Below are positions 6,590 to 32,035 of a stretch of 64,000 nt of DNA, piece by piece. The notes beneath the pieces are model-generated. The model was not told where the DNA came from. It did no database searches and was given only the letters and a program-made list of their open reading frames with translations. Position numbers and translations under genes: made by a program. Positions within the stretch are counted from its first letter, which is position 1; each line of letters begins with the position of its first letter. Origin of the DNA: a virus; IMG/VR virus record IMGVR_UViG_3300025584_000449, positions 32,001 through 96,000 of that record; one strand, written 5' to 3'.

Positions 6590-6635
6590 AAGTTGATTCC
6601 TCCTCTCAAATTACACAGTGTGCTACACCAGTGCA

Positions 6636-6716
6636 GGTGGAGGTGCAGGGTATCGAACCCTGGTCCTACTACAGTGCGCTTCGGCTTTGCAGTAGTCGAA
6701 CAGCCTTTTCACCCCC
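6636..6716 (-). ncRNA. ssrA: Mini-tmRNA: tRNA-like domain only, no mRNA-like domain
   Basis: GGGGGTG-AAAAGGCTG-TTCGAC ... GGAC-CAGGG-TTCGATA-CCCTG-CACCTCC-A-CC. G3:U70 pair; P2a TACTGC/GTAGTA closed by 16 nt. Confidence 0.82.
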
Positions 6717-7487: not shown

Positions 7488-7545
7488 TGTTTTCTTTCTG
7501 TTTAAGTACGCTCGGAAGGGATCGAACCTTCGACCACCTGATTAA

Positions 7546-8253
7546 CCTACCACACTGGCTTTCACCAGCCAAAGCTTTATTGCTTTGTTGTAGTCTGGAC
7601 CATCTCTTCACCATCAGCATTACCTGTTACGGTGGGTAACGTATGGCCTCTGAGGGCTTCCTCAAAGGATCTGTAGTTATCCATGTAGTGCACGTTTTTT
7701 TCCTGATTATTCTTTGTAGGAATAGTCCTAAAAGACATGGTCTTTCTTTTTCCTTTTGACAAAAGATACTTACTATTTATATAAGCTATTTTATCTTCCT
7801 CAAAAGCATATAGAGCAAAAATATCTATATCCCCATCATCGTAAATATACGAATAATTTGGACCAGATTTTTTCGTATCTATAGTTACCAGATCTTTATG
7901 TGCTTTTCGTGCCTTTACTTGGATTTTTACAGGTCTTTGACCAACTAGTGCAATTAAATCCACTCTTGAGTTGTCTCCATATTCTATAAATACGGGATAT
8001 CCTCTAGAAAGTAGATCTTTCATTATAACTAGCTCGCCCAAAGCGCCTTTTTCTTTTGAGTGTAGTTCCATATTAGTTTATCTCCTTTTCAACTAATATA
8101 GTACTACTCTAACGCTTTGTCAAGGGTTGCCTGCTGATTACCCATTACTATCTTGTAGATTTTCACTAAAGGATTAGTACCACAAGCTTTAGGGCGTTCC
8201 AGCATATAGTTACCTCCACTTTATAGATTTCTCTATAAAGGCTCCATTTCTTA
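7546..8253 (-). mobile_element. Group I intron (708 nt) between tRNA positions 34 and 35
   Basis: 5' end TAAGAAATGGAGCC with P2 CTTTATAGAGAAATCTATAAAG like cyanobacterial tRNA-Leu introns; P ATGCTGGAA, Q AATCAGCAGG, R CTCAGAGGCCATACG, S AAGAGATGGTCC; terminal G. Confidence 0.9.
7577..8071 (-). CDS. Intron-encoded PD-(D/E)xK homing endonuclease (I-Ssp6803I-like)
   Basis: KGALGE...GDNSRVDLI...KIQVK. Own TTGACA-17-TATATT promoter (8123..8095) inside the intron; 3' end overlaps R/S core elements. Confidence 0.85.
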   Translation of the reverse strand: MELHSKEKGALGELVIMKDLLSRGYPVFIEYGDNSRVDLIALVGQRPVKIQVKARKAHKDLVTIDTKKSGPNYSYIYDDGDIDIFALYAFEEDKIAYINSKYLLSKGKRKTMSFRTIPTKNNQEKNVHYMDNYRSFEEALRGHTLPTVTGNADGEEMVQTTTKQ

Positions 8254-8333
8254 AAGTCAGATGCTCTTCCAACTGAGCTACGAGCGCATAAGTGGATGGG
8301 GAGAACTCTCCCCACCCTTCTCTAAATCAACTA

Positions 8334-11786: not shown

Positions 11787-12815
11787 TTATATATCGGTTG
11801 GGTTTCCTGAAAAAATTATTTTGTTCTCTTTAATATTGTTATGTTCTAATAAAAAGTCAAGCACAAAACCTTTAAACACCTCAAAAGTTTCAAATACTTG
11901 TAATCTATTGTAAGCATGTAACTTAAATGTTCCTACTAGAATTAAAATATCAATCTTGTTGAAGATCACATTGTTAGTTCCAGTAGCTGTTATTGCATAG
12001 GATAGTTTATCTAGATCTAGCCATCCTATATGTCTCTGTCTACCAGTAGTTACTCCGATCTCATTTCCTTCTATACGAATTTTATCGAAGATTTCATCGT
12101 CAAGACCTTGTTCTCTGAATTGTTTAAATCCTGAATAAGTCTCGTACACTTTAGCACATCCATAGATATCTCTAAGACTTTGAGGAGCTACTCCAGCCGT
12201 GAAGGCAGAGCAGGGCAATACACTGCTTGAGGTTACATATGGGTAATCTCCATGGTCTATGTCTAGCCAGAACCCTTGAGCGCCTTCGAATAATATATTG
12301 ATGTCTCGAAAGCCATCCAATTTATTTAATACTTTTACCGGATCCACAGTAAAGTCTTTTAGTAACGGGTGTGTCTCTGCTCTGATGTTTGTTCTATGCA
12401 TTTTTCCAGCATAGCACGGGCCGTTGCCTTGAAGCGTGACTCCAATAGAGCTATCTTTTTTATCTTGTTTTAGATGTTTATCTTCTATTACGTGAGCATT
12501 CTTTGCAATAAATAATCTATTGCGAATGTCCATATCAGAGGCATTTTCAACTTCTTCAAGCTCTTCTAAGAATTTCTCTGGATTGACTACGCAACCCGGC
12601 CCTATTAAAGATTTGGTTGATGCTTTTACTGGAAAGGGAATAGAATGTGTTTGTATCTTTTTTCCATCTATATATGATGTATGTCCTGCATTATGTCCGC
12701 CGTTGAAGCGAACTACCCAATCATAATTAAATGTTTTTTGGAGAGATGTGCTCACCTTCCCTTTCCCTTCGTCGCCCAGCTGTAACCCCACCACAATGTC
12801 TGAATTCAAATTCAT
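11787..12815 (-). CDS. purA: Adenylosuccinate synthetase (short form)
   Basis: GDEGKG, GGHNAGHT, EGAQG, YPYVTSS, GVTTGR. Confidence 0.92.
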   Translation of the reverse strand: MNLNSDIVVGLQLGDEGKGKVSTSLQKTFNYDWVVRFNGGHNAGHTSYIDGKKIQTHSIPFPVKASTKSLIGPGCVVNPEKFLEELEEVENASDMDIRNRLFIAKNAHVIEDKHLKQDKKDSSIGVTLQGNGPCYAGKMHRTNIRAETHPLLKDFTVDPVKVLNKLDGFRDINILFEGAQGFWLDIDHGDYPYVTSSSVLPCSAFTAGVAPQSLRDIYGCAKVYETYSGFKQFREQGLDDEIFDKIRIEGNEIGVTTGRQRHIGWLDLDKLSYAITATGTNNVIFNKIDILILVGTFKLHAYNRLQVFETFEVFKGFVLDFLLEHNNIKENKIIFSGNPTDI

Positions 12816-31689: not shown

Positions 31690-32035
31690 AAAAGAAGGAA
31701 GGTCGCTTAGCGTCCCTCCCTCTATCATCTAATCATAGTATCTTTATAATTATTGTAAATGCTAAAGAGTCCTAAGGCTCTCCACACCCAGCAGACCATT
31801 ATTCACTAGAAGTATTCGTTCCCGTTAGCGTACTAGATAAGGAACAACCACATTAGCTGCCTCAAGTGCTCAACGCGTTAAATGTTATCTAATGGGGTCT
31901 TAACTGTTTACCCCGTAACCGAGGTATGGTTCACATATTTTAATAGTTTTAAATCTACCTAGTTCAACCATATTCCTGTTTAAACATTATTGTGCCTCTT
32001 GCGAGTTAAAGAAAGTTAACATTAATACAGTTAAG
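31690..32035 (-). ncRNA. Candidate ~340-nt ncRNA
   Basis: Bounded by GGTATAAGAA (32042) and a terminator; no ORF above ~25 aa; stems CTTAACTGT/ACAGTTAAG, ATGGTT/AACCAT, GTTCC/GGAAC. Confidence 0.5.

Follow-up and report, generated by a model that had tools for sequence, protein, structure and literature searches.

A probable mobile group I intron with a homing endonuclease gene in a phage tRNA-Lys(UUU) gene

Results

A split tRNA-Lys(UUU) gene

The stretch of DNA analysed here, referred to as the window, comprises 64,000 nucleotides (positions 32,001 to 96,000) of IMG/VR virus record IMGVR_UViG_3300025584_000449. On its minus strand, from 8287 to 7507, lies a tRNA gene in two halves that are 708 nt apart. 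Together the halves make up a tRNA-Lys(UUU), and the sequence between them has the organization of a group I intron that contains an open reading frame (ORF) for a PD-(D/E)XK endonuclease of the homing type (Table 1). We assign a probability of about 0.85 to the reading of the locus as an intact, mobile group I intron within a tRNA-Lys(UUU) gene. The limits of the gene, and the insertion of the intron between tRNA positions 34 and 35, are exactly those of an initial annotation made from the sequence alone, which had also assigned the tRNA to Lys(UUU) rather than Asn.

The D arm and anticodon arm of the 5' exon are identical to those of Rhodothermales tRNA-Lys 5' exons, and the 3' exon shares 36 of 36-38 nt with uninterrupted bacterial tRNA-Lys genes. 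When joined, the exons fold into a normal cloverleaf that ARAGORN calls Lys(ttt), and the spliced anticodon arm with the 3' half has exact matches of 31-38 nt in uninterrupted tRNA-Lys(UUU) genes on contigs of other phages and of bacteria, far beyond what chance would give.

Six nearby joining registers were tried, only two of which restore a 7-nt anticodon loop. Cutting after U34 and after G7546 produces the loop CUUUUAA and the junction ACUUUUAAUC, which is the Lys(UUU) register; moving each cut one base earlier gives the junction ACUGUUAAUC and the anticodon of Asn(GUU). Among related introns (described below) a G immediately precedes TTAA in every inspected member except one, even where the base before that G is A, T or C. 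Where the introns of relatives end in AG, TG or CG, a terminal G is obtained in the Lys register alone, and the Asn frame is thus excluded there. The exception, locus L062 from a Thermoleophilaceae metagenome-assembled genome (JBPCPD010000107.1), has T instead of G before TTAA (..GGCAGT/TTAAT); either the omega-G has been lost, or the two splice sites are each displaced by a base (to after U33 and after the G that comes before), a change that would leave the mature tRNA the same.

As anticipated in the initial annotation, tRNA finders overlook the gene. Default ARAGORN reports 21 tRNAs in the window without the split tRNA-Lys, and the Rfam tRNA model misses it as well; in its intron mode (-i), ARAGORN does recover the two halves as one cloverleaf interrupted by 708 nt, but with the joint one base too early, and it names the product Asn(GTT). 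The rest of the 179,902-bp genome encodes 21 tRNAs; they serve 18 amino acids and include Asn(GTT) but none for Lys or Trp. Counting the split gene, the phage tRNAs cover 19 of the 20 amino acids with Trp alone missing, and a 23-kb stretch of one strand holds every tRNA gene. An 82-nt match to the Rfam tmRNA model at 6635-6716 (minus strand; 51.3 bits, gathering score 47) involves the ends of the model only and points to a tRNA-like domain that lacks a tag reading frame. Ending 6 nt before the tRNA 5' end is a perfect G+C-rich hairpin (GGGGAGA GUUC UCUCCCC; 8293-8316, minus strand), which is not followed by a run of T and may help to process or stabilize the precursor.

Table 1. Features of the split tRNA-Lys(UUU) gene and its intron, in window coordinates; a slash marks the splice site.
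Feature	Coordinates	Strand	Description
tRNA-Lys(UUU) 5' exon	8254..8287	-	34 nt, ends ..CTGACTT; acceptor, D arm, 5' anticodon stem, C32 U33 U34
Group I intron	7546..8253	-	708 nt, class Lys.3Ug, between U34 and U35; TAAGAAATGG...GTGTGGTAGG; last base omega-G 7546
P1	8256-8252 / 8246-8242	-	CUU/UA with UGGAG; splice-site wobble U34(8254).G8244
P2 hairpin	8240-8219	-	9 bp, GAAA loop; fold z -4.9; same hairpin with quite different sequence in relatives
P3	8214-8209 (GGUAAC) / 7640-7635	-	pairing across 67 sequences
P4	8204-8200 / 8136-8132	-	minimum-energy fold
P5	8195-8192 / 8143-8140	-	minimum-energy fold
P5a	8186-8180 / 8158-8152	-	minimum-energy fold; covariation
P5b	8179-8174 / 8169-8164	-	minimum-energy fold
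P6	8131-8129 (GGC) / 7657-7655	-	mapped by relatives
P6a	8125-8120 (CCUUGA) / 7665-7660	-	mapped by relatives
Sigma-70-like promoter	8095..8123	-	TTGACA-17-TATATT, 11/12 matches; putative
Hairpin at ORF start	8040..8118	-	-23.1 kcal/mol, z -5.3; Shine-Dalgarno AGGAGA 8086..8081 in loop, AUG 8071..8069 paired in stem
Homing endonuclease ORF	7577..8071	-	164 aa, PD-(D/E)XK, PF11645; in P6a loop; stop TAA 7579..7577 in P9a loop
P7	7650-7644 (GAGGCCA, bulged A) / 7602-7597 (UGGUCC)	-
P8	7633-7610	-	covariation; hairpin in every member
J8/7	7608-7603	-	AAGAGA
P9	7594-7590 (ACUAC) / 7553-7549 (GUGGU)	-	encloses P9a and P9b
P9a	7586-7571	-	hairpin in every member
P9b	7569-7554	-	GAAA tetraloop 7563-7560; covariation, fold
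tRNA-Lys 3' exon	7507..7545	-	TTAATCAGG...CGAGCGTA; U35 U36 A37 A38, 3' anticodon stem, variable loop, T arm, acceptor, discriminator A

Architecture of the intron

All elements of a group I core could be mapped in the intron: the series P3-P4-P5-P6 and P7-P3'-P8-P7', the P3/P7 pseudoknot, the bulged A of P7, and J8/7, together with the wobble pair at the 5' splice site and the terminal omega-G. Minimum-energy folding of 8204..8132 recovers P4-P5-P5a-P5b (z -3.1), and that of 7634..7546 recovers P8-P9-P9a-P9b (z -3.5). An earlier candidate for the 3' core, with the hairpin at 8108..8040 as P8 and AAAGCG/CGCUUU as P7, was dropped, the relatives having placed the real 3' core at 7665..7546.

An Rfam Intron_gpI (RF00028) scan, which the initial annotation had put forward as a check, came out differently for the window and for its relatives. 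With lax filters the model aligns with the window over P1-P6, the 5' half only (20.5-21.4 bits, the latter with E 0.0012 in a local search). The window fails the model because the P6a loop of approximately 530 nt splits the core, and the rest of the core comes only after another 450 nt, within the 3' part of the ORF. At the gathering threshold Rfam gave no Intron_gpI match on the window or on 10 homologous loci, and the 3' part alone (7500-7700) had no match in the Rfam scan. With lax filters, ORF-less homologues aligned with the whole length of RF00028: one (L018) passed the gathering score with 54.1 bits, and two others (L025 and L035) reached 46.2 and 32.3 bits. A classical tRNA-Leu(UAA) intron (L014) reaches only 37.2 bits; the model is weak on tRNA introns. 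Its seed includes no bacterial sequence, according to Williams (Williams 2020, bioRxiv 10.1101/2020.01.27.920355).

Relatives of the intron and covariation

One genome per prokaryote species was scanned for a 17-nt motif covering J8/7 and P7. More than 120 places matched, versus approximately 70 expected by chance, and 75 also have an upstream R element, other tRNA types being included among them. The Lys-type places, the loci of endonuclease homologues and the window itself form a set of 67 distinct tRNA-Lys(UUU) introns, and there are thus 66 further introns at U34/U35, bacterial or metagenomic and almost all in bacterial genome assemblies. Their sources are mostly Thermoleophilia/Solirubrobacterales, Rhodothermales and Chloroflexota.

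Because the S motif was used to choose the set, and Q and R to filter it, invariance of the Q, R and S elements is uninformative, and it is the variable helices that carry the covariation evidence. Core identity between the window and the other members is 63-74% over approximately 250 positions, with the R element CUCAGAGGCCAUACG and the S element GAAGAGAUGGUCCAGAC identical, a conservation that is partly by construction, the set having been selected by the 17-mer. The Rfam alignment and our own mapping agree on U34.G8244 as the P1 wobble; the P1 pairs C32-G, U33-A and U34.G are invariant in 67/67, and the pair at intron position +1 is C-G in 51 members and U.G in 16. P3 is paired at all six positions in 66-67 of the 67, with at most four pair types per position, and exchanges between A-U and G-C are seen in P5a, P8, P9 and P9b. 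Across P3, P5a, P9 and P9b, 95.5% of cells are paired, versus 84.7% in 500 column shuffles (maximum 85.8%). P2, P8 and P9a are hairpins in every member despite almost wholly different sequences; the P2 strands, for example, are CUUUAUAGA/UCUAUAAAG in the window and CUUGCACGG/CCGUGUGAG in L009.

The nearest ribozyme cores are those of L007 (73.8%) and L012 (72.7%), both on metagenomic contigs; the L007/L008 locus adjoins a gene for a dCMP deaminase with matches to phage families, and L012 is situated within a dense tRNA array. The four closest homologues of the intron ORF (47-58% identity) are all inside homologous introns at ACTT/...G/TTAA of tRNA-Lys-like genes, one of them in a Rhodothermales assembly where it adjoins an aspartyl-tRNA synthetase.

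Introns in other settings also turned up. On a 190,896-bp contig with 40% GC (L145:2436-3192; Logan SRR19053155) a tRNA-Lys(UUU) is interrupted by a 681-nt intron that encodes a PF11645 endonuclease of 213 aa; here the joint is one base further on (CTTT/...G/TAATCC, U35/U36) and fits the Lys.4Ug type of Williams. The contig has small, mostly unknown ORFs, and PHROG matches leave its phage status undecided. The tRNA-Leu(UAA) intron L014 (L014:3018-3205) is on a 36,755-bp viral contig, IMGVR_UViG_3300031578_000165, with several tRNA genes and an HNH endonuclease; it is a 216-nt ORF-less group I intron at U34/A35 and another candidate for a phage tRNA group I intron. It has the exact 17-nt J8/7-P7 motif of the window intron. 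A core with the identical motif splits tRNA-Arg(UCU) after U34 at six loci (L021, L038, L039, L075, L086 and L104) of Gammaproteobacteria and Campylobacterota (Thiohalophilus, Chromatiales, Hydrogenimonas), some of these introns being 634-701 nt long, and tRNA-Ser(UGA) is apparently split by the same core at L113 (657 nt). This distribution suggests that the intron has moved between tRNAs having U34.

The intron-encoded endonuclease

The initial annotation had proposed an I-Ssp6803I-like enzyme whose reading frame runs through the catalytic core and has its own promoter. The protein scores 67 bits against PF11645 (PDDEXK_5; gathering score 26.1), residues 4-134 covering positions 2-136 of the 138 in the profile. 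A profile of five homologues matches PDB 2OST (I-Ssp6803I) with E 8e-5, aligning D38 and Q51-V-K53 with YDLV and QVK, which we take to contain the catalytic residues of 2OST. E13, D38, Q51 and K53 are invariant in the five homologues, and the positions of the PD-(D/E)XK motif are present: an acidic residue on the first helix, then D, then (E/Q)-x-K on neighbouring strands. In a comparison with the PDB, an AlphaFold model of moderate confidence (mean pLDDT 66.8), which has a restriction-endonuclease-like fold, fits 2OST best (E 1e-5, TM 0.55-0.60); Hjc resolvases come next.

Between 7665 and the stop codon, the ORF shares its bases with P6a', P6', P7, P3', P8, J8/7, P7' and P9, so that the last 30 or so codons (approximately 89 nt) serve as both coding sequence and ribozyme. 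All five homologues have the tail ALRGHT...GEEMVQTTT unchanged, and in the model residues 143-164 have a pLDDT below 50; both are accounted for by the sharing of bases between the end of the ORF and the ribozyme core. The locus is an example of compact dual coding, in which the same 89 nt or so serve in the ribozyme core and encode a conserved tail at the C-terminus of the enzyme.

At least 230 proteins match the endonuclease at E<=1e-5, some of them named by NCBI 'group I intron-associated PD-(D/E)XK endonuclease', and a search of NCBIfam with the endonuclease gave no match. The closest annotated relatives of both intron and enzyme are bacterial (Rhodothermales and Anaerolineae). A protein search of 50,697 phage records found free-standing relatives only, in Sf-FR1 and the SPbeta/phi3T group. 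In Synechococcus phage Sf-FR1 (PV340855.1; L001:1495-1929) the PD-(D/E)XK endonuclease gene, whose product is 32% identical to the intron enzyme, lies between an intact tRNA-Arg and an intact tRNA-Val gene and overlaps the tRNA-Val annotation by 21 nt at its 3' end, and looks like a case of intron-less homing in a cyanophage tRNA cluster.

The promoter of the initial annotation is plausible, with a -35 hexamer that overlaps the conserved P6a strand. A transcript starting approximately 7 nt past the -10 hexamer, near 8088, would not include the 5' strand of the 8040..8118 hairpin, leaving the AUG free. This logic of an internal promoter and an AUG hairpin is a proposal that we draw from the sequence.

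Residence of the locus in a phage genome

The window lies within an IMG/VR virus record, and the identical locus recurs on at least 24 contigs, the longest of 178-180 kb, in several samples; JGI 3300025592 and ENA ERZ23491642 are among those that contain the phage. On independent contigs of 95, 178 and 180 kb that come from different samples, the flanks (a ClpP-like gene, small ORFs and ThyX) show 100% identity, and the locus sits in the same-strand cluster of phage tRNA genes. The GC content of the intron is 36.6%, versus 36.0% for the genome and 45-66% for bacterial relatives; the intron has therefore been a long-standing resident of the phage, its structure kept while its composition drifted. 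Other contigs with an identical enzyme are the same phage at 99.9-100% identity and thus provide no informative variation.

Judged by RNA polymerase, the cultured phages closest to this one are Vibrio phages of 187 kb (28% identity). Searching 50,697 phage records with the nucleotide sequence of the region, in near and distant modes alike, gave no match. Searching viral contigs for related loci with the endonuclease and with ThyX yielded no relatives, and the 5' junction pattern had no match in viral contigs. Elsewhere in the window, a 342-aa ORF at 11787-12815 (minus strand) matches phrog_1211 (E 5e-59), a family annotated as adenylosuccinate-synthetase-like of the PurZ type; this phage may make 2-aminoadenine DNA.

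Discussion

The intron in this phage tRNA-Lys(UUU) gene is probably functional, and we infer the following course for its splicing and mobility. The precursor would fold into P1-P9, and free guanosine would attack after U34, at the U.G8244 wobble; the freed 5' exon would then attack after omega-G 7546 to form the anticodon loop. The enzyme would be made from a separate mRNA initiated at the internal sigma-70-like promoter. In the full precursor the AUG would be locked in a hairpin whose 5' strand the separate mRNA would not have, and the hairpin would thereby keep ribosomes off precursors that need to fold. A single RNA molecule cannot be fully translated and also splice, because the last 30 or so codons are themselves ribozyme strands. 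The enzyme, once made, would cut intron-less tRNA-Lys genes in the DNA of the anticodon stem-loop, and repair would copy the intron in. That an unspliced tRNA-Lys precursor might be shielded from PrrC, a suggestion of the initial annotation, is pure speculation.

Several observations weigh against an intact and mobile intron. The window falls far below the RF00028 gathering score of 50 bits, and default Rfam settings report no Intron_gpI. P1 has only three base pairs with the exon and P10 at best one or two, although this is a common situation among tRNA introns, which make use of the anticodon stem. In the tRNA, G1 pairs with U72, and CCA is not encoded. Promoter-like sites number 5 in this region, versus 5.0 in shuffled sequences, such that only the 11/12 quality of this one stands out; moreover, the phage has its own RNA polymerase gene, and the sigma-70-like consensus may not be that of this polymerase. 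Finally, an intron-less allele of this phage lineage was not found, the tRNA-Lys genes that turned up being those of unrelated phages and bacteria.

We consider it unlikely that the intron is a splicing-dead relic in a tRNA-Lys pseudogene, with the phage relying on the tRNA-Lys of its host. The low Rfam score would fit such decay, as would decayed bacterial members of the family, which may exist, L062 with its T in place of the G before TTAA being an example. However, every core helix is intact, as are the U.G wobble, the bulged A of P7, J8/7 and the omega-G, and while the sequence has drifted to phage GC its pairing has been kept by compensatory changes; the endonuclease ORF is likewise intact with its catalytic residues, and the locus is the same in all of the contigs (at least 24) that carry it. 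Splicing after U33 and after G7547, which would supply a second tRNA-Asn(GUU), is considerably less probable again. It would agree with the Asn(gtt) call of ARAGORN -i, and the intron ends in G in both frames, but the P1 wobble is at U34 and not at U33, the relatives' introns ending in AG, TG and CG permit the Lys frame only, the body of the tRNA matches tRNA-Lys genes, and the genome already has an Asn(GTT) and is otherwise without Lys.

The least credible explanation is that bacterial DNA was wrongly joined to a viral contig during assembly. Bacteria do hold the nearest annotated relatives of intron and enzyme, but the identity of the flanks on independent contigs from different samples, the agreement between intron GC and phage GC, and the position within a same-strand phage tRNA cluster all argue against it. 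An intact mobile intron resident in the phage tRNA-Lys(UUU) gene is thus the interpretation that we prefer.

Group I introns are not new to tRNA-Lys genes. Williams extended the types of bacterial tRNA intron from four classical ones to 21, and the seed alignment of that work includes Mle24.Lys.3Ug and Mpe6.Lys.4Ug (Williams 2020, 10.1101/2020.01.27.920355). The intron described here resembles Lys.3Ug (Mle24.Lys.3Ug) in the gene interrupted, the insertion after CUU, the U at -1, the omega-G, the P1 of CUU.. with UGGAG and the P2 GAAA hairpin. It differs in its setting, the preprint of Williams using a set from bacterial and archaeal assemblies only and making no mention of phages; furthermore, most relatives at the Lys.3Ug site are ORF-less and 236-375 nt long, whereas the phage intron has an intact endonuclease gene and is AT-rich. 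The initial annotation had regarded group I introns as undescribed in tRNA-Lys and in phage tRNAs alike. The former no longer stands, given the Lys.3Ug seed of Williams and the 66 further introns: a tRNA-Lys group I intron at U34/U35 is already described for bacteria. The phage tRNA setting does seem unreported. The open-access literature yielded no group I intron in a phage tRNA gene, which is not proof of absence, and phage papers covering both introns and tRNAs (on Moonbeam, pVa5 and SegB, and a recoding preprint) report none. Cyanobacterial tRNA-Lys(CTT) 'group I introns' of 22-49 nt (PMC5733544) were rejected as a precedent, being too short for a group I core.

Among bacterial systems, the Synechocystis PCC 6803 tRNA-fMet intron that encodes I-Ssp6803I (2OST) is likewise a group I intron in an anticodon loop with a PF11645 PD-(D/E)XK enzyme of approximately 150 aa; it differs in its tRNA (fMet, CAU), its loop position (class fMet.2Ug), its location in a cyanobacterial chromosome and the low protein identity, approximately 20%. 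The cyanobacterial and plastid tRNA-Leu(UAA) introns (Leu.3Ug) and the Azoarcus tRNA-Ile intron, of subgroup IC3, also follow U34 and have a short P1 and a GAAA tetraloop in P9, although they occupy different tRNAs and the classical examples are ORF-less.

Among phages, the T4 td, nrdB and sunY introns, with I-TevI-III, reportedly have endonuclease ORFs in peripheral loops, an intron-internal promoter and a hairpin by which read-through transcripts are kept from initiating translation (Gott et al. 1988, Genes Dev). The phage tRNA-Lys intron has the same kind of peripheral-loop ORF and would share the logic of internal promoter and hairpin; in contrast, the T4 introns are in protein-coding genes and have GIY-YIG or HNH enzymes, where the tRNA-Lys intron has a PD-(D/E)XK enzyme. 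The tRNA genes of Lak megaphages contain 'enigmatic' introns, with none reported in phage tRNAs before according to the authors (Devoto et al., 10.1101/356790). Those have not been classified as self-splicing or group I and no endonuclease was described for them, whereas the tRNA-Lys intron has a full ribozyme and a homing enzyme. T4 SegB (PMC13096335) and the Sf-FR1 PD-(D/E)XK gene similarly tie homing-type nucleases to phage tRNA clusters, but they are free-standing between intact tRNA genes and are without an intron. All phage introns known by 2014 were in protein-coding genes despite the many phage tRNA genes (Hausner et al. 2014, PMC3984707), and the tRNA-Lys locus, with a complete endonuclease-bearing ribozyme in a phage tRNA gene, is a clear counter-example to that statement.

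The finding has consequences for how phage tRNA genes are counted and for how phages may use them. Phage tRNA inventories are under-counted by default tRNA finders, and the intron mode of ARAGORN mis-assigns genes of this kind, giving Asn for Lys. With the intron in the only tRNA-Lys gene of the phage, its own supply of a decoder for AAA and AAG would depend on self-splicing.

A broader and more tentative idea, doubtful at present, is that large phages carry and spread tRNA group I introns; it draws on the settings of L007/L008, L012, L145 and L014. The presumed endonuclease target, the anticodon stem-loop of tRNA-Lys, is near-universal, and a phage copy could therefore home into tRNA-Lys genes of hosts or rival phages across phyla. 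If so, phage-borne homing would explain the patchy spread of these introns in Thermoleophilia, Rhodothermales and Chloroflexota, and the enzyme might serve the phage by cutting the tRNA-Lys genes of competitors or of the host. The patchiness of bacterial tRNA introns has long been ascribed to horizontal transfer, and the locus described here links these introns to a plausible vehicle.

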